Assembly: GCA_963701855.1 (NCBI GenBank)
Contig: CAVPBK010000009.1
Location: 352,001 to 416,000, forward strand
Length of the DNA stretch: 64,000 nucleotides
Direction: 5' to 3'
From: Nitrospirota bacterium
GTDB taxonomy: Bacteria; Nitrospirota; Nitrospiria; Nitrospirales; Nitrospiraceae
In this document: positions 2,572-55,984 of the stretch, in pieces
Numbering within the stretch: position 1 is the first letter of the stretch
Layout: each line of letters begins with the position of its first letter
Program-made: the position numbers and the translations under genes
Notes under the pieces: model-generated
Told to the model about the DNA's origin: nothing
Databases searched by the model: none
Seen by the model: the letters and a program-made list of their open reading frames with translations, nothing else

Positions 2572-3047
2572 TCAAACACTCAATGGCCCTCCAACCCCAA
2601 CGCTGCGAACCGGTCGCTTGGGCCGCAATTCCATGACATCCGGGCTTGAGAAACAAAGACGAACCAACTCAGGGTCAATTACGATATTCACTGTCTCCCA
2701 CGCTCATGGAAGACGATCCGATCGATCCAGCGATTCCACCGCTGTTTGCTCCGACGAAATATCCCAGCTTCTAAACAAACTGCCTCAGCAGCAATCGTGG
2801 CCACCACTCGTTGTTCAAGGAGAACACACCGCTCATCATCGATCGACCACTTCACACGCAAATCCATTCGCTCCAAGATTTTGATTCGGACACCGGCTCG
2901 GACAAGCCACATATGCTGAGATTGAATGACCCCCATTATCCGATTGATCCCGGTGCCTTCCGCACATGCATAGGCCATTTCGATCATGTGGTCTCTTTTC
3001 ACATTGCTACAGAAGTCTGGAACCCACCGCATTCCACCTTCCATCAT
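2572..3047 (-). pseudogene. Possible TOBE-like protein split by a frame change near 2690
   Basis: ORF 3047-2688 (..NRWIDRIV) stops; a shifted frame continues VNIVIDPELVRL to TGA 2572, resembling a TOBE last strand. Confidence 0.4.
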
Positions 3048-3064
3048 GGGTCAGCCCCATTGCG

Positions 3065-4852
3065 TTAGAAGAAGATTTGATACTGGACACGGATCATATT
3101 TTCAATCAGCGTCCCTGCATTGACATCTAATGGAACCTTACCGGATGGGAAGTTGGTACCGACAGCCGGCAACGGAGCGCTTCGGCCGATCGCGAACCCG
3201 CCTTGCCCCATGGCTATATTGCTATAGGTAAGCATGATCTGGTGGTCATAGGTTCCGCTCAGAAACCAGTTGAGAGACACGTCCACTTCCTTGATCAGAT
3301 CACTGGCTGAATGGGTATCAGGATCCCAGTAGGCGTACCGTGCCGCCACCTCCAATTGTCTCGGAATCAAATAGTAGCCTGATTGCACCGACCAGCCAGT
3401 TGAATTACCAAACTGCCCTGGAGCAAATGCGGTACAAGGCCCCCCTTGTACCGCCGTCTGTAAACATGGAAGCCCCTTCTCATGCCGGGTTATATTCCTG
3501 AACCAATATTCGGCTTGCAGGGAAAAGCCCCGATATTTGAAGACATAATCCAATGTTTCGGTGGAAAAGTCGACGACTCCCTGCCCAAGAATTCTCCCAT
3601 TTCCAGTTAGGGCCAGCGATCGCCTGAGATTTAGATTTGCCAGATCGATGCCGACAAAACTGTTATCCGTGCTGGTGTTAAGCCCGGGATTATAGGCATA
3701 GCCTCCCCCGATCACCATTTGAGGAGCCTCCGAGTAGGCAATATCACCTTCGCCATAGCCCGCCCGGCCCAAGATATTCCACTGCAACCGCGCCGTATAC
3801 ATGAGCTGGTTGATGCTGGTACGGACATTGGCGTTGAGATTCCGGTTATTCGCCGGGCAGCCTGCCGGAGAGGGAAACGGATTTCCTGAGGTTTGACCTC
3901 CCGGGCACCCCACCGTGGGCTCTTCGCTGCCGAATTGAGCAAACCGGTTCACGAGAGGACCTTCGCCATTGAAGACGCCGAAATAATAATTAACCGGGTA
4001 CACCTCTTCATCATTCATGATCGTGATGCCGACGTCTCGGCGGTTCAGCCCGTTGGCCGTAAACGCATCCATCGCAAGGGCGCGAGCGGCAAACTGCATC
4101 GCCGCCGTCGAATTAATCTGCGACCGATTGAAGTAAACCTTGTACTGGCCAAGTTGCACATTCAACCATGGGATATGAGTGCTCATCACGGTCGCATCAA
4201 GCATCGTCAAGGCGCCCGGAGCCTGCGCATTTTCTGCCGTCTCACCCGCGATTTGAAATAAGTATTTTAGTTCCGGGCTGAAGAGATGGCCCATGAAGTA
4301 GAGCCGCGCGGTCCTCAAATTGAACGTTGAGGCTTCATCGATAGTGCGATTGGCCCGGTAATCACCGAAGACGCCCAGCAGTTCCGGAAAATCTTTGGAG
4401 TCTCCTGTCGTACGCCAGGCATCATTTCTCGATCGCTGCGTATAGCGGGTTGCAAAGCGACCGCGGATTTTTAACAAGAAGGCGTTATCATTCATGGAAA
4501 AGTTGAAGCCACGATCATACCAGGCCTTAAAACTCGGCTGGAGCAAATAGGTTCGCTCCTGCGACGCTCTGACGACCGCATCGTATTCTTCCTGCGTGAT
4601 GGACCCCTGTTTGACAGCTCGCTCCAGGAGCAGTTTGGTCGCCGGATCCATACTCTCAACAAAGACATACTTCCCGTCCTTCTCCACCAATTTTCCCGCA
4701 TCAGCGGCGAGAGCCAGTTGTGGACCGAGCCATACCGCACAGGCCAAGCACAGAGCGAATCCAATATTCTTGTTCCACTGCGGGACAGCAATTGGAATGA
4801 CGGATAATATCCGAATGAACCTGAATGCCTTCCACCTGCCACGACCCTTCAT
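3065..4852 (-). CDS. OprO/OprP-like anion-selective outer-membrane porin (Mo arm)
   Basis: LLERAVKQGSITQEEY N-terminal segment, QLGQYKVYFNR, RRDVG, KYRGFSLQAEY, C-terminal QYQIFF barrel signal. Start uncertain. Confidence 0.8.
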   Translation of the reverse strand: MKGRGRWKAFRFIRILSVIPIAVPQWNKNIGFALCLACAVWLGPQLALAADAGKLVEKDGKYVFVESMDPATKLLLERAVKQGSITQEEYDAVVRASQERTYLLQPSFKAWYDRGFNFSMNDNAFLLKIRGRFATRYTQRSRNDAWRTTGDSKDFPELLGVFGDYRANRTIDEASTFNLRTARLYFMGHLFSPELKYLFQIAGETAENAQAPGALTMLDATVMSTHIPWLNVQLGQYKVYFNRSQINSTAAMQFAARALAMDAFTANGLNRRDVGITIMNDEEVYPVNYYFGVFNGEGPLVNRFAQFGSEEPTVGCPGGQTSGNPFPSPAGCPANNRNLNANVRTSINQLMYTARLQWNILGRAGYGEGDIAYSEAPQMVIGGGYAYNPGLNTSTDNSFVGIDLANLNLRRSLALTGNGRILGQGVVDFSTETLDYVFKYRGFSLQAEYWFRNITRHEKGLPCLQTAVQGGPCTAFAPGQFGNSTGWSVQSGYYLIPRQLEVAARYAYWDPDTHSASDLIKEVDVSLNWFLSGTYDHQIMLTYSNIAMGQGGFAIGRSAPLPAVGTNFPSGKVPLDVNAGTLIENMIRVQYQIFF

Positions 4853-29189: not shown

Positions 29190-30536
29190 ATGATGCGCAC
29201 ACTCATCATCGACGACGAAGAATACGTTCGCTTGGTGTTGGAGCAGGCGCTCCGCGAGGAAGGCTGTGAGGTGACCGCCGTTACTCACGGGGCGGCGGGC
29301 ATCGAGGCCCTGCAGACCACATCGTTCGAATGCGTCATTACCGATCTCCGTATGCCGGGCCTCGACGGTCGAGCCGTCTTGAAGTGGGTCCGCGAGCATC
29401 AACCGGACGTGGACGTCCTGATGCTAACAGGCCATGGCGACGTCAAAGACGCGGTCGAGGCCATTAAGCAAGGCGCCTGGGACTTTCTGGTCAAGGATAC
29501 GCCTTTCGACGCCGCAGCAATCAAAGCCGCATTGGCCAGACTCACCACCGTGCGCGCCCTCCGCAAAGAGAACTTGGCGGCGCGGCATGGCGGCTTCACC
29601 CGCGATGTCATCATCGAAGGACCAAGTCAGGTTTGGCAAAAACTCAAGGCCCAGATCGCGCAGATCGCTCCCTCCAATGCGCCGGTCCTCATTCAGGGGA
29701 AAACCGGCTCGGGCAAAGAAATCGCAGCGCGGCTGCTTCATGACCTCAGCCGGCGATCCAGTGGACCATTTCTTGCCGTGAACTGCGGAGCCGTGAGCCG
29801 CGAACTCTTAGAGAGCGAACTCTTCGGCCATGAAAAGGGCGCGTTTACCGGCGCGACCGCCGCAAAGCCTGGACTCATCGCCGCCGCTGAAGGGGGCACG
29901 CTATTTCTGGATGAACTGGGCGAGATGTCGGGCCCGATGCAGGTGAGTCTGTTACGCTTCCTGGATCGAGGCGAATACCGCCCCGTCGGCAGCACGCGCA
30001 CGTTCCAGGCGAACGTCCGTGTTATCGGAGCCACGAATCAGGACATCCAAGAACTCGTGCACCAAGGTCGCTTCCGTGACGACCTGCTCTACCGAATCAA
30101 TACCGTCACCCTGCGCGTACCTCAGCTCCACGAGCGAAAAGAAGACCTTCCGAAACTTGCAGAACACATCCTCTCGACCCTGCGTCTCTCTGGAATTACG
30201 AAACGAACTATCTCACCTGAGGGCGTGCAGACGCTTAGCACCCACAGTTGGCCCGGCAACGTGCGTGAACTGCGGAATGTGCTTGAGGGAATTGTGCTGA
30301 TGAGCAATCGAACTGGCCCGATCGGTCCAGAAGAGGTTCTCGCGCTATTGCCGAAAACCCGGAGCTCGTCTCAGACGGGAGACCAGAGTCATCTTTCCCT
30401 GGAAGAGATTGAACGGCTGCATATCGAGCGCGTCCTCGATGCCAGCGGCGGCAACAAGACCCAGACGGCAAAAACGCTTGACATCGATTACAAAACACTC
30501 CTCACCAAACTGAAGAAATACGGACTCGCCACGTAA
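29190..30536 (+). CDS. NtrC-family sigma54 response regulator
   Basis: IIDDE, TDLRMP, GAFTGA, WPGNVREL, GNKTQTAKTL. Confidence 0.95.
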   Translation: MMRTLIIDDEEYVRLVLEQALREEGCEVTAVTHGAAGIEALQTTSFECVITDLRMPGLDGRAVLKWVREHQPDVDVLMLTGHGDVKDAVEAIKQGAWDFLVKDTPFDAAAIKAALARLTTVRALRKENLAARHGGFTRDVIIEGPSQVWQKLKAQIAQIAPSNAPVLIQGKTGSGKEIAARLLHDLSRRSSGPFLAVNCGAVSRELLESELFGHEKGAFTGATAAKPGLIAAAEGGTLFLDELGEMSGPMQVSLLRFLDRGEYRPVGSTRTFQANVRVIGATNQDIQELVHQGRFRDDLLYRINTVTLRVPQLHERKEDLPKLAEHILSTLRLSGITKRTISPEGVQTLSTHSWPGNVRELRNVLEGIVLMSNRTGPIGPEEVLALLPKTRSSSQTGDQSHLSLEEIERLHIERVLDASGGNKTQTAKTLDIDYKTLLTKLKKYGLAT

Positions 30537-30618
30537 CCTAAGCCGGCCTCGTTAAACGTAAAAAGTAAAACGTACAACGTTTCGGCTTTCGGAGGTTTGA
30601 TCTGTCTGCAAGGGTGCG

Positions 30619-30942
30619 TTATGCGGCAGTGCGCTTGCGGGTCGTCCGTCTTGACCGCGAAGCGAGACTAGACTTTCGCTCGCGAAGACGGCCGGTCGCG
30701 AACTTGTGCAGGACGCTCGCCATGAGGGTCTGATACGGTATACCTTCCTCACTCGCTCGCGCCTGGATATCCGCTAGATCGACCGTGGACATGCGGATGT
30801 TCACACGACGGTTTTTGGTCAAGGTGGCACGTGCGTATTCTCGGTAGCGGCGCAGTGATACTTCCGTGGTCACAACCGATTTGAGCATGCCGCGCTCGTA
30901 TGCGGAGAGAATCTGCTTCTCGTATCGGTCAAGTCTCTTCAT
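30619..30942 (-). CDS. Antitoxin (BrnA/CopG-like)
   Basis: LDRYEKQIL..KNRRVNIRMS..ASEEGIPYQTLMASVLHKF; overlaps the toxin stop. Confidence 0.85.
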   Translation of the reverse strand: MKRLDRYEKQILSAYERGMLKSVVTTEVSLRRYREYARATLTKNRRVNIRMSTVDLADIQARASEEGIPYQTLMASVLHKFATGRLRERKSSLASRSRRTTRKRTAA

Positions 30943-31220
30943 GGCTTATCCTTTCTGCCATAGTCCCGCGTGGCTTTCCGGCTTGGGATAATGGTCTTGA
31001 GAAACAGATAGTCGGCCTCTTCCACGTGAGGAACGAGATAGACATACTCCATAACCGCCACAACAAGCACTTTTTGGTTCGGATACTGCCTTGGATTCGG
31101 GTGCATGAGAACATCAAGGAGCCCGTCTGATTCGAGCGCCAGAACAACATCTTCAAACGAAATACCCCGTGACTGCTTCAGTTGTTCATTCTTCTTCTCG
31201 CTCCAACGATATGTTCTCAC
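30939..31220 (-). CDS. BrnT-like toxin
   Basis: WSEKKNEQLKQSRGISFEDV..HPN..YVYLVP..FLKTIIPSRKATR. Confidence 0.85.
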   Translation of the reverse strand: MRTYRWSEKKNEQLKQSRGISFEDVVLALESDGLLDVLMHPNPRQYPNQKVLVVAVMEYVYLVPHVEEADYLFLKTIIPSRKATRDYGRKDKP

Positions 31221-31484
31221 GTCGCTATGATAGCTCACAGGTGTGCCTTTTGTCATCACCTGATATGGTTACTGTTTCTGGCAACACGCACATCAAATAT
31301 ACACACGCATATCGTGAGGCGAGGAATTCAGCCGGTTGCTTTTCTTTGCTTGGTTGAATCAGACTATCCAGCTAAACCAGATAGACCGCAAACGACGAGG
31401 ACCGAACTCGGTGGGCAACTGGCTGGACTGAATCATGTTCACACCTAAACTGCTCCTGATACCGATGTCTACCCATGATGATAT

Positions 31485-35531: not shown

Positions 35532-37058
35532 TCAGACTGAAATGGCTCCTATTACTTTTCCACCTCTCGCATCACCTCCGGTCACTGTCGAAATTCCAAG
35601 ACTCTTCAATATTTGAATTAACTCCGAGTCGAGCTCCGTCAAGCAAGCAATGCAGAGCATCTCTCGTGGCCGAGTAAACGCCACATATCCAAGTCTGCAT
35701 TTGTCTTGTTTGTCGGCAACGCGAAGTAACGGTTCAGTCTGCAGCCATTTCCTTAACTCCGTGAGGCTTTTCGCAACTACAAGTGCCGCGTCTGCTTGCA
35801 GCCCTTTAGCCTTGCGAATCGAAGAATAGCATTCAGCCGCCTGTGACAAATTCCCTCCACCGAATTCAATGCTGAGACGACATAAGCGGTCTTCGATCAG
35901 GTCAATGCGTGAGTTCGACACTTTGTGGCCAAAGGCATCGAAGACAAGCACCTTAAGTTGTTCAATTCCGTACTGCCCTGCACGAAGCTCTCTGAGTAGC
36001 CGAACGCCAACGGTTCGCAATTGAAGCCGTGTCAACCCCAACTCCTCGCAAATTCTCCTTTGACTGCGATCGAGCGCAAGAGACAAAAGGTCAAGTGCAT
36101 CTCCAAGAAGGGTATTGGTCTTTCGTCCGTCATTCGAGATTGGACTTAATTTGAACTGCTCACGAACAGAGTCGAATGTCGCGTTCTCCTCCGAGAGATA
36201 TAGCCGTGTCCGTTGCTCTTCTTCAATTTCAACATTCTCACTCAACGCCTGATAACGTCGAACGATTTCTTCAAGAGCAGTGGCGGGAATGAAAAGAACT
36301 CTGGGTTCTCCACGATAAGGCTTGACCGGTATTTGCTGTACATCTACGCGAAACTGATTCACAAACGTGACGATTTCTCCATTTGACCGGTGGTTCTCGA
36401 TGATTTGTTGCACTTCGGCCTGCTTTTTGAATCGGAAGAATGGAATTTTGTCGAACGACGGTGGCTTCTTACCCCGATACCCAAAACTCATCACATACTG
36501 CTCAGAATCGCCGACAACATATAGTCTGGTTTTCTCGGCCTTGTGGAAATGTTCAAAAACCTCAAACATTCCAATATCCGTATCTTGAAATTCATCGACA
36601 AAAAGGTACGCAATCCGTCCGCAGATAAGATCTCGCATGCCTGGTGTCTCCAGAACCTGACGAGCTTTCGGGATCATCGAGGAATAGGGAACAATCCCCT
36701 TTTTGATCAGATTCTTCTCGTAAGCAGCGGCCCCTGCTGGTCCTACTTTGTCGTATGGATCAATCGCCACATATATTCGATCTTCAGGAAGTAACTTCAG
36801 AAGTTCCGCGCACGGCATCAGAAGAAATCGATTCACAAAAGAATGGATAGTTCCAACAAAAATATTGCTCGGAACCCTGGGAACTCTTTCAACAAGACGA
36901 TCATGAATAGTGTTCGCAGCCGCGTTAGTGTATGTAACGGCTGCAAGACATCGATGTGGCGGAAGGATTGGAATCGCGGCCACAATTTCGTCGACCATCG
37001 CATGCGTTTTCCCAGCACCAGGACCCGCCTCAGCAAACTTGGGTTTCGGCAACTTCAT
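35532..37058 (-). CDS. UvrD-like SF1 helicase (GajB-like)
   Basis: AGPGAGKT, TYTNAAA, GTIHSF, VDEFQD, VGDSEQ, NHRS, KAKGLQ, YVAFTR. Confidence 0.88.
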   Translation of the reverse strand: MKLPKPKFAEAGPGAGKTHAMVDEIVAAIPILPPHRCLAAVTYTNAAANTIHDRLVERVPRVPSNIFVGTIHSFVNRFLLMPCAELLKLLPEDRIYVAIDPYDKVGPAGAAAYEKNLIKKGIVPYSSMIPKARQVLETPGMRDLICGRIAYLFVDEFQDTDIGMFEVFEHFHKAEKTRLYVVGDSEQYVMSFGYRGKKPPSFDKIPFFRFKKQAEVQQIIENHRSNGEIVTFVNQFRVDVQQIPVKPYRGEPRVLFIPATALEEIVRRYQALSENVEIEEEQRTRLYLSEENATFDSVREQFKLSPISNDGRKTNTLLGDALDLLSLALDRSQRRICEELGLTRLQLRTVGVRLLRELRAGQYGIEQLKVLVFDAFGHKVSNSRIDLIEDRLCRLSIEFGGGNLSQAAECYSSIRKAKGLQADAALVVAKSLTELRKWLQTEPLLRVADKQDKCRLGYVAFTRPREMLCIACLTELDSELIQILKSLGISTVTGGDARGGKVIGAISV

Positions 37059-37062
37059 TGCC

Positions 37063-38991
37063 CTAGTTTCCCTTTATGAAGTCAAACGCCTGAGAAATAT
37101 ATTTGGGAATTGTCAATTTCTTGGGTGGGCGACTGTCCTTCTCTGCAACCTTCTCATCTTCTGCTAGAACGGAGATCAGATTAAAAGCAAACTCGGCCTT
37201 ATGGCTTTCGATTTCGGCGAAGAAAGCATCTACGTTAATGTCATTTGTTCCAGTCTCAGCTCGGAGTTTTGGGCCGTTGCTTGGCTTCGTCATGGTGAGC
37301 GCCAAGAACAGAAGTTCCTTCCCATCACCAACCTTATTCGATGAGACGAGCTCCTTCTCAAATGTACTCTCGGTCGTGACCTGAATTTTGATGTGTGGAG
37401 TATCGTTGAAGTCCGCCTGCAGTGATGCGGCTCGGTTTTCGACTTTTGTCCCTGAGTCACTATCTGTGAGCACCACGCACTTCTTGAAGAAACCATTTTT
37501 CACGATCGTCAGAAAATGTCTAAACGCAATGCCATTCACATTAATAATAGTGCACCCGATACTTTCGAGTGACCTATCTGCATTTTGCTCAAAAAGTTTG
37601 GGGATGACAATTTGCTCTGCAATACCCTCAACGAGAATGAGCCGTCGCGCGAAAAACATTCGAGATTTCGTCGCATCGAGATAAAGACTCAAAAAACGAA
37701 CAGCCGCATCATCTTTTTTAGGGTCGATGTCTTTGAGGACATAGTGTGCGGCAATGGAATCGTCTAAATCTCGCCGAAATAGTACTACCGTATTTGGGAG
37801 AGAAAGCTTCGCCGCCACATGAGTGGAATGCGAGGTCAGAATCAACTGAAGCGACTCGGATTGCCCCTTCCTTATGTCCTCGATGTTTCTGGCTAGGTGG
37901 TCCTGAAGATGCGGATGCAAATGGGCTTCAGGCTCCTCGATTCCAACCAGGCGAAAACAGACAAAGGTATCATCTCCTGCTGAACTATCGGGAGTTTTAG
38001 CCAATTGCGATAGCACAAGTGCCACATAGAGAAGGTTATTCCTACCAAGGCCATTGCGAGCAACCGTAATGGGGTTTGCGCCATAGGTCATCCCGATCTT
38101 CTTTAAGAACTCGGCTGCATCGGGAGCGACAAATTGAAGTCCAACGGAGTGGTTCTCACCTGGAGTATCAAGCGACACACGTACAAGTAATTGCTGAACA
38201 TCAGTCTTGATCGCAACGAGTGAGGGGTCATTATCGATTGCGTTCTTCAGATCGCCAATCAGTCTCTTGATATCTGTGTATCGAGAATCGCTACTCTGCC
38301 GAAGAACGCGAAACAGTAGACGTTGCTCGCCGCCAGCGACCAGTTCTCGCTCTGCGTCACGAAGCGCATCGAGAATCTCAACACGAAGCATTCTTAGCAG
38401 CCAGGATTCGCATTCATTCGAAGGACGTCCGCCTCCGTAGATCGTGTAGCGGTATTCAGCAATCGGGAATTCAACATAGCCACTATATTCCGGCTCCTCC
38501 GAACCAACACCGGGATCTGGATTCGCCTTCTTGTCCTGTGCTTTTCGGTGAGCAATTGCCTCTCGTTGCTCCTTAACCCATCTGTCACACTTGAAGTTCC
38601 CTCTCACTGCGAACCGATATGTCACACATGCCTCGGTCAAATCTGGCTTGCTATACCAGTCACCAACGACAGCGTGCTGGTCATCTTGAATCTTGCTCAG
38701 GGTTGCATGGATCTCTACTTCCGGAAACACAACCTTATCAACGTCAATGGATTGATCGGCGACTTGTTTCTTGAAAGCGATAACAGTCAGGTAATTAATA
38801 TCGTCAATTTCAAGATTCCGATGTTGAATGACAGAGATCTCCTGGCTGAAGAGTAGGGAAATTGCAGCCAGAAGATTCGTCTTGCCGATGTTGTTCTCAC
38901 CTAATATGAGCGTGAACGGTCGCAGATCCATCACAAATGGTGGGTCGCCAAAGTTCCTAAAGTTCTTGATTCTGAGATTGCTCACATACAT
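37063..38991 (-). CDS. OLD-family ABC-ATPase/TOPRIM endonuclease (GajA-like)
   Basis: IKNFRNF, GENNIGKTN, IEEPEAHLHP, LTSHSTH, ILVEGIAE, LTDSD, TFEKEL. Confidence 0.9.
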   Translation of the reverse strand: MYVSNLRIKNFRNFGDPPFVMDLRPFTLILGENNIGKTNLLAAISLLFSQEISVIQHRNLEIDDINYLTVIAFKKQVADQSIDVDKVVFPEVEIHATLSKIQDDQHAVVGDWYSKPDLTEACVTYRFAVRGNFKCDRWVKEQREAIAHRKAQDKKANPDPGVGSEEPEYSGYVEFPIAEYRYTIYGGGRPSNECESWLLRMLRVEILDALRDAERELVAGGEQRLLFRVLRQSSDSRYTDIKRLIGDLKNAIDNDPSLVAIKTDVQQLLVRVSLDTPGENHSVGLQFVAPDAAEFLKKIGMTYGANPITVARNGLGRNNLLYVALVLSQLAKTPDSSAGDDTFVCFRLVGIEEPEAHLHPHLQDHLARNIEDIRKGQSESLQLILTSHSTHVAAKLSLPNTVVLFRRDLDDSIAAHYVLKDIDPKKDDAAVRFLSLYLDATKSRMFFARRLILVEGIAEQIVIPKLFEQNADRSLESIGCTIINVNGIAFRHFLTIVKNGFFKKCVVLTDSDSGTKVENRAASLQADFNDTPHIKIQVTTESTFEKELVSSNKVGDGKELLFLALTMTKPSNGPKLRAETGTNDINVDAFFAEIESHKAEFAFNLISVLAEDEKVAEKDSRPPKKLTIPKYISQAFDFIKGN

Positions 38992-39172
38992 GAATCTATT
39001 CCTGCTTCTTCACTATGTCATCTGCGGCGGACTGCTTCCGCTCTACCTAGTCGTCAGGGCAGCTCTGTCTTTTGGAGTGAAAAACAGGCATAAGCTACTT
39101 TTAGCCGAGTACTGTGTCAACACAAGGGGGGCCTAGTTCGCGGAAAAAGTACCCGCCTAGACCGACTTACAA

Positions 39173-39336
39173 ATGTTCCCTCCAAGCTCGCTCGTTTCTC
39201 CCCTCCCCTCTAGGGCGAGCAGTCCGATTTTCAAAGGGAGGGTGGCCTGAATCGGTCTCCCACTGCGCGCGTCCAACGAGGCCCTTCCGAGGGCGCGCGT
39301 TGCGCGAGCACAGGAGACCGATCAGGCCGCCCTCCC
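39173..39336 (+). repeat. Structured palindromic repeat element, intergenic copy A
   Basis: Long IR GGGAGGGTGGCCTGA.TCGGTCTCC / GGAGACCGATCAGGCCGCCCTCCC enclosing a 50-nt core (39261-39310) that is 45/50 identical to 39722-39771. Confidence 0.85.
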
Positions 39337-39480
39337 AGTCCCTCTGGAATTTTTCCCTTCCACTCTGGAATTTCTCCCCAACTCCCTCTCCCATTCCCCC
39401 TCATCAGTCACATCTATATATTCATCGTAACTAACTGACTTTATTAACTATTCAATCGTTCTTCTCTTCATCTTCGAGCC

Positions 39481-39496
39481 CGGCACATTCCCTGCT
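39481..39496 (+). promoter_or_regulatory. Probable sigma54 promoter
   Basis: CGGCACATTCCCTGCT (GG-N10-GC) just upstream of the regulator-RND operon. Confidence 0.55.
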
Positions 39497-39512
39497 GATA
39501 TCCCCCTATATA

Positions 39513-40070
39513 ATGGTAGCGCACCCCTCCATCCTCTTGATCGAAGACAGCCCCGGCGAGTGCGAACTGTTTCGCCTGGCACTGATCCAAACCACTTTCG
39601 ATGTCGTCCTCTATACCCAGCATGACGCAGATGCCGCGCTCCACTTCTTACAAGACCGAGTCAGTTATAATCCCAACATCTCCTTCCAATACGCTTCTGG
39701 CGAGACGGCTGGAGTGGGCTCCACTGCGCGCGTCGAACGAGGGCCTTCTGAGGTCGCGCGTTCCGCGAGCAAAGAGACCATGCCAGCTGCCTCGCCCTCC
39801 CTTATCCTGCTCGATCTCAAGCTCGGCCGACGGAATGGTTGCGACTTTTTGATTCGAGTCCGGGCCGATACCCGTCTCTCTGCGATCCCTGTCGTCGTCT
39901 TCACCACATCAGATGACCAGACCGACTTGGCACACTGCTACGCCAACGGCGCGAATGGGTATGTCGTGAAGCCCGGCACGTACGACAAGCTCGTTCACTG
40001 TACCGGCGACATCTGTCGGTATTGGCTGAGATGGAATCGATCCCTCTTAACGGCTGAAACCCGATGCTGA
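39513..40070 (+). CDS. Single-domain response regulator with in-frame repeat insertion
   Basis: IEDS, ILLDLKL, FTTS, GANGYVVKP all present; about 35 extra residues between alpha2 and beta3. Confidence 0.85.
   Translation: MVAHPSILLIEDSPGECELFRLALIQTTFDVVLYTQHDADAALHFLQDRVSYNPNISFQYASGETAGVGSTARVERGPSEVARSASKETMPAASPSLILLDLKLGRRNGCDFLIRVRADTRLSAIPVVVFTTSDDQTDLAHCYANGANGYVVKPGTYDKLVHCTGDICRYWLRWNRSLLTAETRC
39678..39796 (+). repeat. Structured palindromic repeat element, copy B inside the CDS
   Basis: IR GGCGAGACGGCTGG / CCAGCTGCCTCGCC around the shared core; 5' TCCTTCCAATACGCT resembles copy A TCCCTCCAAGCTCGCT. Confidence 0.82.
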
Positions 40071-43000
40071 CCCGCGCTTCGCTCAAAAATCCATACGCCG
40101 TCATCGCGATCAGCCTCATTGTTATCATTCTAGGCGTCGTCTCCTACCAGAAAATGGTGGTGGACATCTTCCCGGAGATCAACATGCCGGTCGTGGCGGT
40201 GGCCACGTTCTATAAAGGCATGGGGCCGTCGGAGGTCGAAGGCGCCATCACATTGCGACTGGAGCAAGCTTTTCTTCAGGCCTCTTACATCGACCACATC
40301 GAGTCTCGTTCCTTGCCCGGTGTCAGTCTCATCAAGATTTACTTCCATTCCTCCTATGACGTAAACGCTGGGCTGGCCGAAATCACCAGCCTCACCTATG
40401 CGAACCTGAAATTTCTGCCGCAAGGGATCTTTCCCCCGATCATCATCAAGTTCGGGGCTGCCAGCTTGCCTATTGCCATCCAGACGACCAGCAGCGAGAC
40501 GATGACGGAGAAGGAAGTGCGGGACCTCGCGTATTTCAACGTACGTCCGCAACTGGGTGGCGTACCAGGAGTCGCGTTCCCAACCACGTTCGGAGGGACG
40601 GTTCGCCAAGTCACGATCTTTCTCGATCCCGAACGCATGCTGGCTCGTGGTGTTTCCACTCACGAGATTGTAAATTCGGTGAACATGCAGAGCGTCCTCC
40701 TGCCGGCTGGGGACGTGAAAATCGGCGACTTCGATTACAACGTCTACACGAATAGCATGATCAAGGTCGTGGACCAAATGAACGACATTCCCATCAAGAT
40801 GGTGAACGGAGTGCCGTTGTTCTTGCGAGATGTGGGGAAAGCCGTGGACTCCACGATGATCCAGACCAACGTAGTACGGATCAATGGCAATAGGGCTGTC
40901 TATCTTCCTATTCTGAAGCAGGCCGGAGCCAACACCATAGCCGTCATCGATGGGATCAAGGAGGTCCTGCCTAAACTGATCAATATTCCGAAGGACCTGG
41001 CGATCAAGTTGTTGTTCGATCAGTCCCTCTATATCCGCCAGGCCATCAAAACACTGGAGCATGAAGGGCTTCTTGGGGGAGGGCTCGCCTGTCTGATGGT
41101 CCTGCTGTTCCTTGGGAGCCTGCGCTCAACCCTCATAGTCGCCATGGCGATTCCACTGTCCATCACGGCCGCTTTCATTGGTCTCTACTTCACCGGCCAC
41201 TCGGTGAACATCATGACGCTCGGCGGATTGGCACTGGCCGTTGGACGGTTAGTCGATGACGCGATTGTCGTCGTCGAAAACTTTCATCGCCATATGGCGA
41301 TGGGAAAGACTTCTTCCCAAGCGGCGGCTGATGCCGTCAACGAAGTGGCTCTCCCCATGCTCATTATCACCATTACGGTCTTCCTCGTCTTCTTGCCCAT
41401 CGCGTTTTTCACGGGCGTGATCAAGTTTTTGTTCGTGCCGCTTGCTCTCGCAGTGGCCTATGCCATGATGGCTTCCTACGTCGTTGCACTGACCCTGGCC
41501 CCTGTTTCGATGGCACGGTTGCTTCGTGACCATGCAAGCCATGCACAGGGAGGGGCTCCTGCCGTGTATCAAGGACGCTTCACCGCGTTCTGGAATCGCC
41601 TCAACATCTTCGACCCATTTGTTGAACGATACGTGCTCCTCCTGCGCTGGTGCTTGGTTCACAAGGTGATCGTGATTGTCACGGTCACGGCAATCTTCGT
41701 CGGCTCCATGTTCATGGCTCCTCTGATGGCGACGGAGTTCTTCCCGAAAGTAGATGCCGGTTCGTTCGTCCTCAACGTCTCGGTTCCTGAGGGCACACGA
41801 ATTGAAAAAACCGAGGCGATCGTGGCCAGGGTCGAGGGGCTCATTCGGGATGCGATTCCCGCGGCAGAGTTGGATCAGATCGTGTCGAACATCGGAGTTC
41901 CGCAGGGCTGGATGGTGCTCTACACACCGGTGAATGGTCCCCATCAGGCCTTCGTGCTCGTGAGTCTGAAGGATGACCATGATGTCCGCACCGATGACAT
42001 CATCATGAAGTTGCGCCAGTCGTTTCGTCGTGAGTTGCCAGGAGTGAAATTCTCCTTCCAGACTGGCGGGATCGTCAGTGATGTGATCAATGCCGGCTTG
42101 CCCGCGCCAATCGATATCAAAGTGAGCGGTCCCAACATGGGGGATCTTGCGGCAACGGCCAACATGGTTCGGGATCTTGTAGCAGCGATTCCCGGCACGG
42201 CAGATGTACAGGTTCGGCAGGGTATGGACTATCCTGAAATTCATCTCGATATCAATCGAGACAAAGCCTCCTTTGTTGGGCTCAATGAGTCTCAGATCGT
42301 GACGGATTTGGTCACCGGGCTCTCGTCAAATGTTACCTTGAACCCCGGCTATTGGATCGATCCCCGGACAAATAATGCCTATTTTGTCGTGACCCAATTT
42401 CCTGAGCAGATCTTGCTGGAGTTCGATGATTTTCTGAACATGCCGCTCGTAGGGACATATGTAGACAAGCCGATGTCGGTCAGTGCCGGTGGTACCAGGC
42501 TCAGGGGCAGTTCATTGGTGCTCACCCAAACACCCTTTCCAGAACAAGTTCGCTTGCCAGGTGTGATCTCGACCGGGGGGAGCCCCGTCCTCCTGCGAGA
42601 TCTGGTGGATGTCGTTCGAAAAGTCGGTCCTGAGACCGTCGATCACTTCAACTTGCAGCGAACGATGGACGTGCTTGTCAGCGTCCCTGGTAACGATCTG
42701 GGGCATATCGCGACTCAGATCGAACAGTCCGTGGCGAAGCTCAAGATTCCGAAGGATGTGGTGCTGACCTTCAAGGGGGAAGTGGACAGTATGCGCGCGG
42801 CGATTTCTGGATTTGCCTGGAATCTGCCGATGGCGATGGTATTGATCTATTTGGTGATGGTGGGGCTGTTTCGTTCCTGGCTCGATCCCTTTGTGGTCAT
42901 GTTTGCCGTCCCGTTGGGATTTATCGGGGTAATCTGGATGTTGCTGCTGACCCATACCTCGGTCAATGTGGAATCGATGATCGGCACCCTGATGATGATC

Positions 43001-43333
43001 GGGATCGTCGTATCTAACAGCGTGCTCCTGGTGGATTTCGCGAATAACAAGTTGCGCGAGGGCATGCCGATCGAGGAGGCCGTTGTGGAGGCGGGGCGTC
43101 TCAGAATCAGGCCCATTCTCATGACGTCACTCGCCACGGTGTTTGGGTTAGCACCGATGGCGCTGGGCATCGGGGAGGGAAGCGAGAGCAATATGCCGCT
43201 CGCGCGCGCTGTGATCGGAGGCTTGACGGTCTCGACGTTTATGACATTACTGTTTATTCCGGTTCTGCACGCGATCGCCCGCCGGCGTTCAGCAGCCGGC
43301 CAGACTGAAACTGAAAGAGGCGAGGTTCGCTGA
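40064..43333 (+). CDS. RND efflux permease (AcrB/CusA superfamily)
   Basis: VDIFPEI, NIMTLGGLALAVGRLVDDAIVVVEN, GIVVSNSVLLVD, RIRPILMTSLAT. Confidence 0.96.
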   Translation: MLTRASLKNPYAVIAISLIVIILGVVSYQKMVVDIFPEINMPVVAVATFYKGMGPSEVEGAITLRLEQAFLQASYIDHIESRSLPGVSLIKIYFHSSYDVNAGLAEITSLTYANLKFLPQGIFPPIIIKFGAASLPIAIQTTSSETMTEKEVRDLAYFNVRPQLGGVPGVAFPTTFGGTVRQVTIFLDPERMLARGVSTHEIVNSVNMQSVLLPAGDVKIGDFDYNVYTNSMIKVVDQMNDIPIKMVNGVPLFLRDVGKAVDSTMIQTNVVRINGNRAVYLPILKQAGANTIAVIDGIKEVLPKLINIPKDLAIKLLFDQSLYIRQAIKTLEHEGLLGGGLACLMVLLFLGSLRSTLIVAMAIPLSITAAFIGLYFTGHSVNIMTLGGLALAVGRLVDDAIVVVENFHRHMAMGKTSSQAAADAVNEVALPMLIITITVFLVFLPIAFFTGVIKFLFVPLALAVAYAMMASYVVALTLAPVSMARLLRDHASHAQGGAPAVYQGRFTAFWNRLNIFDPFVERYVLLLRWCLVHKVIVIVTVTAIFVGSMFMAPLMATEFFPKVDAGSFVLNVSVPEGTRIEKTEAIVARVEGLIRDAIPAAELDQIVSNIGVPQGWMVLYTPVNGPHQAFVLVSLKDDHDVRTDDIIMKLRQSFRRELPGVKFSFQTGGIVSDVINAGLPAPIDIKVSGPNMGDLAATANMVRDLVAAIPGTADVQVRQGMDYPEIHLDINRDKASFVGLNESQIVTDLVTGLSSNVTLNPGYWIDPRTNNAYFVVTQFPEQILLEFDDFLNMPLVGTYVDKPMSVSAGGTRLRGSSLVLTQTPFPEQVRLPGVISTGGSPVLLRDLVDVVRKVGPETVDHFNLQRTMDVLVSVPGNDLGHIATQIEQSVAKLKIPKDVVLTFKGEVDSMRAAISGFAWNLPMAMVLIYLVMVGLFRSWLDPFVVMFAVPLGFIGVIWMLLLTHTSVNVESMIGTLMMIGIVVSNSVLLVDFANNKLREGMPIEEAVVEAGRLRIRPILMTSLATVFGLAPMALGIGEGSESNMPLARAVIGGLTVSTFMTLLFIPVLHAIARRRSAAGQTETERGEVR

Positions 43334-43389
43334 ATGGAGTAGTCATGGAGGGATCATGTATGCTTGCTGAGGGAGCTTCGTGGGGGGAT

Positions 43390-44535
43390 ATGACACAGAC
43401 GTCGCGGGTCAAAATCGTCCTAATGGTTGCCGCGGGGCTCTTTCTTCTTGCGGCAGCCTTGATGATAATCCAGGGCCAGTACCCGACAGTGTCCGCACCC
43501 AATACAGATCGGGACTCGGCTCAGTCTTCTGCCCACCAGGTCCAAGTATTGAAAGTGCAACGGCGCGACATTAGCCAGACCCTGACTCTGCCGGCAAATA
43601 TCTCTCCTTGGTACCAAGCCACATTGTACGGAAAGGTCTCTGGCTATGTTAAATGGATCGGCTTCGACAAGGGCGATGTCGTGAAGCAGGGGCAGTTGCT
43701 GGCCGTATTAGATGCGCCCGAGATCGAAGACCAATACAAGCAGGCTGATGCCGATTACCAAATCAAGAAAGTCACGTATGAGCGGTACCTGAGCGTCTGG
43801 CAGGATAATCACGATATCATCGCCAAGCAGGATGTGGATGTGGCCAAAGCCGCGGCTGAATCGGCGAAACATCAGCGAGACAGCCGCCGCACCTTACTGG
43901 AGTACACCAAAGTCTATGCTCCGTTTCCAGGCGTGATCACGGCTCGGTTTGCTGATCCAGGCGCACTCATCCAGTCGGCGACCGGTTCGGCAACGCAAGC
44001 GGCGCCGCTGTTCACGATCATGGATATGGATAGCGTCAGGATCTATGTGAATGCCCCGCAGGAAGCTGCACAGTTGGCGAAACCAGGGCTTCCCGTGACG
44101 ATGACCGCACGTGAATGGTCTGAAGAATTGCAGGCTTCGATCACTCGGACCACCGAGGCCCTGGATCCAGCCACCAGAACATTGCTGGTCGAAATCGATG
44201 TGCCGAACAAAGACCATCGGCTGCAGCCTGGGATGTTCGTCAAGGTGGCGCTCCATCTGCAGCAACATCCGAACGCACTGGCGATTTCTCCCGCCTCCGT
44301 TGTTCCGAGCAAAAACGGACAGGAGAAATCTGTGTTCGTAATCGATTCCGGCAAGGCCAAACTCGTTCCCGTGAAAGCCGGCATTGATGACGGGATCTGG
44401 GTGGAAGTGGTGGAAGGACTGACCGGCGAAGAAGAAGTGGTCGTCGTCGGCAAAAACGGGTTGGTCGATGGGCAGACGGTTCAATCGTCCCCTTACAACC
44501 TTCCAAACGGCAAAGCAGCCAAGCAGAAAATGTAA
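43390..44535 (+). CDS. RND periplasmic adaptor (MFP)
   Basis: KVSGYV..DKGDVVKQGQLLA, YAPFPGVITAR, DPATRTL, LQPGMF. Confidence 0.94.
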   Translation: MTQTSRVKIVLMVAAGLFLLAAALMIIQGQYPTVSAPNTDRDSAQSSAHQVQVLKVQRRDISQTLTLPANISPWYQATLYGKVSGYVKWIGFDKGDVVKQGQLLAVLDAPEIEDQYKQADADYQIKKVTYERYLSVWQDNHDIIAKQDVDVAKAAAESAKHQRDSRRTLLEYTKVYAPFPGVITARFADPGALIQSATGSATQAAPLFTIMDMDSVRIYVNAPQEAAQLAKPGLPVTMTAREWSEELQASITRTTEALDPATRTLLVEIDVPNKDHRLQPGMFVKVALHLQQHPNALAISPASVVPSKNGQEKSVFVIDSGKAKLVPVKAGIDDGIWVEVVEGLTGEEEVVVVGKNGLVDGQTVQSSPYNLPNGKAAKQKM

Positions 44536-44581
44536 CATTCACAGAGGGAACGGTCGAGACGTTTTCCGGAGGCGACCCCTC

Positions 44582-46003
44582 ATGCAACAGTCCATCACCA
44601 AAATTTTAATTATCGCACTTATTGCGGGCAGCTCCCATGTCGGTCTCGCACAATCAAGGGAACAGTCGCCATCGGCGGAACCAACTGTATCTCGTCCTGC
44701 CGTAAAACCTGCCGGCTCTCTGCTGCCGCTCGATGAAGCCATCAAAACCGGTCTTGCCACCCATCCGCTGATCGAGCGTTCGCGCTATAGCTTACTCCTT
44801 ACAAAGGCTCTGACCCGTCAAACGCAAGGTGAACGCTATCCCTGGCTTGAAGCCTCCCTCGCCGGAAGCAGCGGTTCTATGCGCATTGTGACAACTGATG
44901 GCAAAGCGATTCACGATCGTGGTGGGCATGGGTTCGATCCGGGCGGCGCGCTCGCGCATCATAACCAGAACATGTTGTCCGGCGGGTTCATGCTCAATCA
45001 ATTGATCTCGGATTTTGGCTACACCGCTCATCGCATTCTCGCAACCGAGGCCAATGAAGCAGCCAGTGAAAAAGAAATTCTGACGAACAAAGCCTTCGTC
45101 ATCCTCAATGTTCAAAGGGCCTATCTCAACTGTTTGCTTCAGAAGAGTTTGGTGACGATCGCGGCTGAGACGGTCAAGCAGCGGCAAGCCGTCCGTGATC
45201 AAGTGCAGGCGCTGTATAAACATCAACTCAAATCGAAAGTCGATCTGGACTTGATGTTGGTGGAAGTCTCGAATGCTGAGCTCTCGCTGATCAAAGCGAA
45301 GAATGAGATCAAACAGTCTTTTGCTGCCTTGAACAACGCGATGGGCATCGAAGGCCCGGACCAGTACGAACTGGAACAAATCCCTATTCGCGTGACTCCA
45401 AGCCAAGCGGTCGACACATTGGTTGCCACCGGGCTCAGCGACCGGCCAGAGCTCCTAGGCAATCGGGACCGTCTGGTCGCCACCGAAGAATTGCTCAAGG
45501 CGGTCAAGGCCTTGAATTTTGGTTCCCTCTCTGCCGTCGGCTCGATCGGCATGACCAAATACGGCGATGTGCATGATAGTGGCATTCCTTCCGATGGCGT
45601 AGCCCCGTTTTGGGGGTATGGCGCCACGATGAAGTTCCCTCTCTTCACAGGATTCAGGATTCAGAGTCAAATCAAAGAGGCCAGCTACCGCAAAGGGGAA
45701 ACGGAAGAAGAACTCCAGAGCCTCGCGAATGAGATCGTCTTGCAGATTGTTCGGGCCTATCTCACCAAGACGACGAATGCCGAGCAAATCGCACTCGAGC
45801 AGGAGCGCGTGACCTTTTCGAAAGAGGCGTTGCTGCTGTCACAAGAGCGCTACCGCCTTGGCTTGAGCCCGATCGTAGAGGTCATCCGCGCGACGGCCGT
45901 GTTGTTCGAATCCGAATCTCGCTTGGCGGAAGCCCGGTATATCTATAAAACCAGTGAGTCAGTGGTCGCCTATGCTACAGGCCAAGAGTACAAACGCTTC
46001 TAG
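44582..46003 (+). CDS. TolC-family outer-membrane protein 1
   Basis: QLISDFG, VQRAY, LNNAMG, RPEL, PLFTGF, ERYRLGL. Confidence 0.9.
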   Translation: MQQSITKILIIALIAGSSHVGLAQSREQSPSAEPTVSRPAVKPAGSLLPLDEAIKTGLATHPLIERSRYSLLLTKALTRQTQGERYPWLEASLAGSSGSMRIVTTDGKAIHDRGGHGFDPGGALAHHNQNMLSGGFMLNQLISDFGYTAHRILATEANEAASEKEILTNKAFVILNVQRAYLNCLLQKSLVTIAAETVKQRQAVRDQVQALYKHQLKSKVDLDLMLVEVSNAELSLIKAKNEIKQSFAALNNAMGIEGPDQYELEQIPIRVTPSQAVDTLVATGLSDRPELLGNRDRLVATEELLKAVKALNFGSLSAVGSIGMTKYGDVHDSGIPSDGVAPFWGYGATMKFPLFTGFRIQSQIKEASYRKGETEEELQSLANEIVLQIVRAYLTKTTNAEQIALEQERVTFSKEALLLSQERYRLGLSPIVEVIRATAVLFESESRLAEARYIYKTSESVVAYATGQEYKRF

Positions 46004-55775: not shown

Positions 55776-55984
55776 CTAGCAGGCTGTTGACAAAGTCCGC
55801 CAGCGGCGTTCTCGCGGCGCTCAGAGGCTCAACGTACGGCAAAGAGTACGCTTCGCCTCTTCACTTGCTGCGGCCTTGCTGGACGGCCATTCTGAACAGC
55901 CTGCGAGGAACCCTGAAAGAGTCTGTGGACATCCAAGTGCTCATGGTTTCGATATGCTCAAGTAGTTTGTCAACTGCCTGCTAG
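55776..55984. mobile_element. MITE-like non-autonomous element
   Basis: Terminal IR CTAGCAGGCTGTTGACAAA / TTTGTCAACTGCCTGCTAG (18/19); internal extra end AACAGCCTGC at 55895-55904; no transposase. Confidence 0.8.

Follow-up and report, generated by a model that had tools for sequence, protein, structure and literature searches.

K is an abundant, previously undescribed small hairpin repeat of the Nitrospiraceae, one copy of which lies in frame within a response regulator gene. We consider it a mobile element, non-coding and non-autonomous, that folds from one single strand into a hairpin and is recognised and moved in this form, a reading to which we give a probability of roughly 55%. Its main anatomical characters are antisense polarity at stop codons, arms that match the host sequence, and replacement of hairpin tips. 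K was studied from a stretch of 64,000 nucleotides of a Nitrospirota bacterium (GCA_963701855.1, contig CAVPBK010000009.1, positions 352,001 to 416,000), called the window throughout, and from there in the 4.3-Mb genome and its relatives.

The window holds two K hairpins near each other, copy A in a spacer and copy B in the regulator (Table 1). Base-for-base comparison bore out the initial annotation, in that the 50-nt cores starting at 39261 and 39722 mismatch at exactly five positions (14, 22, 28, 33, and 42). The pair 14/42 changes from C-G to G-C, the pair 22/33 changes from C-G to G-T, and position 28 lies in the loop; segments 39260-39313 and 39721-39774 are 89% identical. The outer stems are unlike in sequence, yet each forms a long hairpin, as had been noted. 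The + strand folded with z = -8.7 for copy A and -3.4 for copy B, and none of 200 shuffled sequences folded equally well.

Table 1. Positions in the window of the two K hairpins and of the response regulator that contains copy B.
Feature	Position	Strand	Remarks
Leader module of copy A with remnant 3' core end	39173..39220	+	Small local hairpin
Copy A, 5' arm	39236..39260	+	25 nt; arm type is that of the type-2 in-frame inserts elsewhere
Copy A, conserved core (K)	39261..39312	+	
Copy A, 3' arm	39313..39336	+	
Single-domain response regulator	39513..40070	+	185 aa; Pfam Response_reg; Rcp1/RcpA-like; phospho-Asp101 at 39813-39815
alpha2-beta3 loop	39657..39797	+	141 nt, against 24 nt in empty orthologues; predicted disordered
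Copy B, 5' arm	39699..39721	+	
Copy B, conserved core (K)	39722..39773	+	In-frame reading
Copy B, 3' arm	39774..39796	+	Foot merges with host Pro-Ser codons

The leader of copy A had been proposed to form an alternative fold or pseudoknot with the core. The complementarity of 39187-39197 to two core segments is real, but the fold gained no support. Positions 39186-39193 pair with the local remnant at 39213-39220, and the probability of leader-core pairing was 0.0 with both RNA and DNA parameters in an ensemble fold of nested structures, a model outside which pseudoknots fall; a leader-core switch was rejected on this ensemble. Genome-wide, the leader motif gave 67 matches (8 in the reversed control), of which 49 were followed by K and 31 lay 45-51 nt 5' of a core. 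Copy A also marks a junction: similarity to the relatives G015 and G018 ends at 39172, and the DNA upstream varies among relatives. A Gabija defence pair (35532-38991, - strand; GajA, E=1.6e-216; GajB, E=3.6e-122) lies directly upstream. In a further relative (G009, locus L019), the sequence on the upstream side of copy A corresponds to window positions 29569-31423, so that the intervening block looks like an insertion ending at copy A.

The possibility, raised beforehand, that only these two copies exist was checked with an iterated profile. It gave 179 K matches in the genome at E<0.01, 147 of them near full length, and a single match at E<1 in the reversed genome. The pair is thus not a mere local twin, and local duplication alone was ruled out, though type-2 inserts reuse the arms of copy A.

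All copies share an inside-out plan, in which a conserved, covarying 52-nt core is enclosed by 19-26-bp arms of variable sequence. The core is rod-shaped; two G-A mismatches are conserved in it, and two bases bulge out. In 80 of 137 ungapped cores, 96.2% of the cells were paired and double-sided changes numbered 94, compared with 26.6 in shuffles, none of 500 of which reached 94; structures slid along the core paired far worse. The shuffle control is blind to kinship, which weighs against the mobile reading, as does the chance that arm complementarity is mechanical rather than selected. Arms measured 19-26 nt in 117 of the 137 copies and fell into 44 sequence clusters, 35 of them singletons. 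Within arms, G-T wobbles outnumbered A-C mismatches (224 vs 93, p=1e-13), and the same strand had the lower energy in 129 of 137 copies with DNA parameters and in 95 of 137 with RNA parameters; one strand is therefore the folded one. Orientation was uniform within 41 of 42 multi-copy clusters. The flanks of K are 72-80% C/T, and no target duplication above chance was detected (flank direct repeat 4.18, vs 4.08 +/- 0.07 in shuffles); nested copies carry a short CCTTC repeat on their flanks.

We searched related genomes with a degenerate exact pattern, which had no match in the reversed control. It was present in 52 of the 53 genus genomes sampled (completeness at least 90%), with 3-166 copies each. 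The outlier, which is 99% complete, had no exact match, and two other genomes had 3-5. At the family level, 12 of 25 genomes of the Nitrospiraceae carried the pattern, compared with 0 of 126 genomes from other families in the phylum sample, a comparison in which the exact pattern misses diverged relatives. K copy number is high in this genus and 1-8 in other genera, and G080 has none. Among the 80 records listed, from 128 stretches with K, 79 were labelled Nitrospira, Nitrospiraceae, or a higher Nitrospirota rank. Viral contigs gave no exact match, and phage carriage was rejected on this basis. Rfam searches returned nothing at E<=4 in the window and nothing at gathering score in three repeat-rich loci. 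In the literature on Nitrospira repeats, hairpins and MITEs, in-frame palindromic elements, ORF6N, and REPIN/RAYT, as covered outside supplements and most subscription journals, we found no account of the family. The earlier proposal of an undescribed, structured, mobile repeat family was supported.

Using our own gene calls (3957 genes), we mapped K relative to genes. Clusters lay outside called genes in 135 of 136 cases, the remaining one being that in the response regulator. An antisense gene stood on the 3' side of 97 of the 136 clusters, and 62 of 98 full copies with such a gene were within 60 nt of its stop; in contrast, a sense stop lay within 110 nt of only 6 of 53 copies. No more than 13 nt separated the stop from the stem foot in 43 of 63 cases. 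Behind 1766 stops without K, the sense strand was 50.7% purine, so that base composition does not explain the polarity at stop codons; target composition was rejected as its source, a result that also tells against the mobile reading. For the C-rich genome strand, a modest K bias was left in convergent and divergent spacers (30 vs 14). The neighbours of K are mostly housekeeping proteins, including RecG, PurF, DegP, SdhA, and GcvP (on the basis of 56 of 120 adjacent proteins and, in a second set, of 55 proteins), and an integron cassette array was rejected for this reason.

The folD locus gave the closest view of the arms. By eye, 29 of 30 genomes had K or a remnant there and one was empty; the 5' arm was a sense copy of the end of the host gene, 7-9 nt including the stop codon, and three different host ends were matched in this way. 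Such arms would point to copying from, or correction against, the target. Against this, the host-matched arms come from few independent lineages and one well-sampled locus. Behind a cyclophilin-like gene in another genome (L441, G095), a K arm has given rise to a core-less, re-perfected short hairpin, which suggests active palindrome correction.

K sites turn over quickly. Across 502 of 790 kb, G015 is 95.1% identical. Of the 54 K loci compared with it, 21 were unchanged, 9 had another K arrangement, 7 had no K, and 17 did not have anchors at both ends; two of the 16 differing rows were alignment artefacts. K was in contact with 20 of 115 collinear indels and with none of 15 rearrangements; for spacers, the figure was 132 of 2825. 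The windows used favour indels. Pairwise comparisons revealed new K units within the loops of older ones, or exchanged for the tip of a K or of a second family, M, with the outer stem kept. New units also displaced the 3' half of older hairpins, whether K or other Nitrospira hairpin families. Gain, loss, and swapping of K are thus rapid between close genomes. The linkers of nested copies, inspected by eye, were G-poor and shared a common length and a loose consensus; they therefore look inherited, and a non-templated origin was rejected.

These data bear on the view that K is an RNA element kept by the host, in which the reverse-complement hairpin behind a stop shields the mRNA or brings it to an end, or the K strand serves as an antisense RNA or protein-bound site, with selection and gene conversion in place of movement. 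The bias toward antisense stops, the closeness of the stem foot to the stop, and the retention of K or a remnant at folD all speak for it, as does the near-constant stem of about 22 bp, which we take to resemble an RNase III-type substrate. The exact core found throughout the genus likewise fits selection for host function and counts against the mobile reading. However, the better-folding, G-T-tolerant strand is the opposite of the neighbouring mRNA, K sites change between genomes of 95% identity, with unrelated hairpins often taking their place, and some orthologous sites are empty; the outlier genome and the two with 3-5 copies also argue against it. We regard a host-kept RNA element as unlikely.

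Family M is itself a repeat of about 124 nt with TIR-like ends that often supplies or abuts a stop codon (for example, window 55780-55903, - strand). Its 346 end motifs in the genome formed 118 pairs, and 25 of 57 plain M copies had CTAG or CTAA behind them, on one side only. Other repeats accompany small genes: four-helix-bundle genes (L519-L533) and small GIY-YIG genes (L539 and L542) are each bracketed by short-unit or palindromic repeats of their own with inverted arms, and gene-less versions of these repeats occur at K hot spots and inside K loops.

A mobilising enzyme tied to K was not found among the families searched, and no insertion intermediate was seen; both count against the mobile reading. 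Y1 transposases were present in 30 and reverse transcriptases in 22 of the 53 genus genomes. Among the 33 Y1 loci examined, out of roughly 80 Y1 matches, K was near 4 and bracketed none; it was near 0 of 12 reverse transcriptase, 0 of 6 IS110, 0 of 6 DDE, and 1 of 15 four-helix-bundle loci. Tyrosine recombinases and GIY-YIG genes had no consistent link to K. DUF559 was absent from 5 genomes, and integron integrase gave no match at E<=1e-40 in 5 genomes, as in the control genomes. G001, which is 99% complete and has 60 exact K copies, had no Y1, reverse transcriptase, DDE_Tnp_1, IS110, or ORF6N match. The neighbours of 20 K loci in 7 low-copy genomes included no common gene (48 of 79 proteins scanned). 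No gene was enclosed in a split K, the best case being two whole copies around a HigBA block (L582): these direct repeats with near-identical arms, at about 2600-4600 of G206:C15, surround a HigB toxin gene, a neighbour, and an HVO_A0114-family gene. We also observed a 204-nt tandem duplication with 99% identity (L026:968-1375, G000 C11) next to a Y1-family gene of 239 aa.

According to this survey, it is doubtful that K is an ordinary REP or MITE, cut and pasted, often inside family M, by a transposase of the RAYT/TnpA or IS5 type that has a patchy distribution or has been lost. K does resemble REPINs in its size, copy number, and extragenic position, 19 of the 118 M end-pairs enclose K, and Y1 transposases exist in the genus. 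One-strand folding without target duplication is, moreover, typical of HUH transposition. On the other hand, only 27 of 136 K clusters lie near an M end, K is near 4 of 33 Y1 loci, bracketing none, and near none of the reverse transcriptase, IS110, and DDE loci, G001 carries its copies without a match to any of these families, and the ends are the least conserved part of K.

REPINs, as described in bioRxiv 10.1101/2021.07.10.451892, have conserved arms, a variable spacer, and an accompanying RAYT. In the accounts of REPIN and REP-RAYT systems given there and in PMC3733652 and PMC3479197, the repeats are, like K, about 100 bp long, palindromic, extragenic, non-coding, present in hundreds of copies, frequently placed a short way downstream of genes, and persistent in lineages. 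K reverses this design, having a conserved centre and variable arms. The GTAG/CGTC tag is absent at the stem feet listed, where the flanks are just C/T-rich; no flanked RAYT occurs in the 33 Y1 loci; and the strict antisense polarity at stops is a further difference. Prokaryotic MITEs such as NEMIS/Correia, ERIC, and RUP are described as small non-coding hairpins beside coding sequences (PMC10969869, PMC3733652), as is K. Unlike MITEs, K has neither conserved terminal inverted repeats nor target-site duplication, and family M is closer to the MITE class.

Accessory genes gather at K sites, most clearly those for ORF6N proteins. For 27 of 38 ORF6N loci, K lay no farther than 600 nt upstream or 400 nt downstream, on both sides in 8, compared with 236 of 3957 genes of this genome, on both sides in 17, as background (Fisher p=2e-24, with kin that are not independent). 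An ORF6N protein acting as the cognate partner, that is, a small DNA-binding protein that binds K or other hairpins and recruits host enzymes in a REPtron-like unit, would account for this association and for the many different sites of ORF6N genes. We judge such a partnership quite improbable. A structural model of ORF6N gave weak winged-helix matches (best E=0.23) and revealed no catalytic fold, and where ORF6N loci lack K, repeats of other families often flank them. Of 85 genomes, 55 contained ORF6N; G001 gave no match. The protein matches PDC-S05, a defence candidate, and genes for toxin-antitoxin and restriction systems cluster at K sites as well. ORF6N genes look like cargo of K sites. 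ORF6N proteins end in a conserved RIGF motif, and a conserved short inverted repeat with a -35-like TTGA, a candidate operator, lies about 60-110 nt upstream of nearly all ORF6N starts (L506-L570).

Integron attC sites stand behind a stop codon, fold on the bottom strand with extrahelical bases, conserve structure more than sequence, and have accessory genes nearby. K is similar in its place directly behind stops, in the folding of the antisense strand with extrahelical bases, in keeping structure more than sequence, and in the accessory genes around it. It differs in lacking fixed R''/R' boxes and L boxes (its AAC/GTT pairs covary), in its mostly housekeeping neighbours, and in being dispersed rather than arrayed.

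Copy B had been described as an in-frame insertion of about 35 aa in a receiver protein; it is indeed in frame, and its size is 39 aa. We examined 109 regulator loci and retained 77 after removal of 22 incomplete and 10 duplicate ones. K was in the alpha2-beta3 loop of 44 orthologues (43 in frame and stop-free, 1 broken), 29 were empty, and 4 had another long loop (3 in frame, 1 broken). The suggestion that all orthologues might be equally long-looped therefore does not hold. Empty orthologues have a loop of 5-10 aa and include the most distant ones; the nearest solved structures to an empty orthologue are Rcp1/RcpA-type regulators. A different, K-free in-frame insert of 105-123 nt occupies the same loop in L307, L308, and L326. 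The regulators at L009 (G015) and L379 (G081) carry a frameshift within this loop, either as pseudogenes or through an assembly error. The stop of the window regulator overlaps the start of an operon (40064-46003, + strand) that by appearance encodes an RND pump, an adaptor, and an outer-membrane channel.

The receiver motifs had been reported intact, and they are so across the orthologues with K: the acidic pair, the Asp, and the Lys-Pro were kept in 44 of 44, and the T-T-S motif in 43 of 44. AlphaFold kept the receiver fold, with pLDDT <50 for residues 56-90. The inserts are of three types, in two reading frames, with one or two cores and some chimeras, and always in sense orientation. Distinct insert lengths were divisible by three in 18 of 19 cases (p=3e-8), and 43 of 44 inserts were stop-free, compared with 51-67 of 137 non-coding K copies open in a given frame. 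Median flank dN/dS was 0.164 with an insert (42 sequences) and 0.152 without (29). Purifying selection acts on the gene. Given a dN/dS of 0.16 and the kept catalytic residues, we consider it probable that the insert is translated into a disordered loop that the protein tolerates, and that it is not an intron removed from the RNA. In this respect, the proposal that K adds new protein sequence was supported by the in-frame, stop-free inserts, and the alternative of removal at the RNA level was contradicted by lengths and open frames as for a translated insert. That K is a ribozyme or processing signal excised from the regulator mRNA, restoring the short loop, is highly improbable: strict internal-loop conservation and the invariable sense (folding) orientation speak for it, and the frame and stop constraint, the absence of an Rfam match, and insert boundaries that differ by insert type speak against it. 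One soil RNA run contained 7% of the words, and its aligned contigs, from assembled contigs only, all derived from other loci.

On a tree of the flanks, filled and empty regulator alleles interleave. Gain or loss on repeated occasions would fit this pattern; recombination between lineages could also yield it without new insertions, which counts against the mobile reading. The arms of type-2 inserts are those of copy A upstream, which suggests local copying from copy A. A habit of entering genes, like that of the Rickettsia palindromic elements (RPEs), was not borne out. K is inside a gene in 1 of 136 clusters here, and among 370 further copies no gene has an internal in-frame K other than the orthologue of this one; a weak protein search gave no match of the insert peptide in longer proteins. 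The in-frame insertion is an exception that recurs at this loop. It is probably a tolerated passenger, the peptide itself being without evident function. According to PMC10969869, almost one-half of RPEs are located within ORFs, where they encode a conserved peptide. Like them, K is a palindromic in-frame insert in a protein gene, with a peptide at a tolerated position. It is unlike them in occupying one gene only, in two frames and with three insert types, exchanged repeatedly at the same loop. K thus works like REP/REPIN and RPE repeats but departs from both in their defining features.

The anatomy and turnover of K were observed, and the chemistry and enzyme of its movement are what we infer. 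For K as a hairpin moved in one folded strand, the moved strand would be ssDNA or RNA, the + strand in this window. With short homologies as its foothold, the donor strand may invade at a hairpin or in a patch rich in C/T; the point of entry would probably be a replication fork or a break that a structure-specific nuclease has made. Its arms would then be renewed from the neighbouring host sequence by template switching or palindrome correction. As the mover, a host activity would fit, and so would a transposase that is patchy or has been lost. Invasion and arm renewal by copying would make K sites hot spots for acquiring and losing accessory DNA such as ORF6N genes, toxin-antitoxin pairs, and Gabija. 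In the regulator, there may have been several entries of K into the C-rich alpha2-beta3 loop, of which one or more probably started from copy A, and the survivors would be the in-frame, stop-free products only.

A bolder proposal, which we put forward tentatively and consider unlikely as it stands, is that bacteria harbour a class of mobile hairpins without their own transposase, of which K is the clearest example. Host enzymes would patch the folded strand, with no more than a 52-nt core for recognition, closely behind stops or into hairpin tips, the 22-bp arms being copied from the target. K would also act as a recombination site that travels and moves accessory genes about, namely those for ORF6N, toxin-antitoxin pairs, and defence, much as an attC system would if it were dispersed and had no integrase.

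Small palindromic repeats and in-frame insertion were already known. What K adds is the reversed REPIN/MITE plan with host-matched arms of constant length, the antisense polarity at stops that composition does not explain, and quick turnover without a transposase that can be linked to it. K marks points of gene gain and loss in a genus central to nitrification, and the regulator offers a rare natural series, 44 inserts and 29 empty alleles, for testing the tolerance of a loop to new sequence. If K belongs to a transposase-free class of mobile hairpins, the regulator loop would be a natural, exchangeable peptide cassette; that its mobility is host-driven would, if true, matter most.
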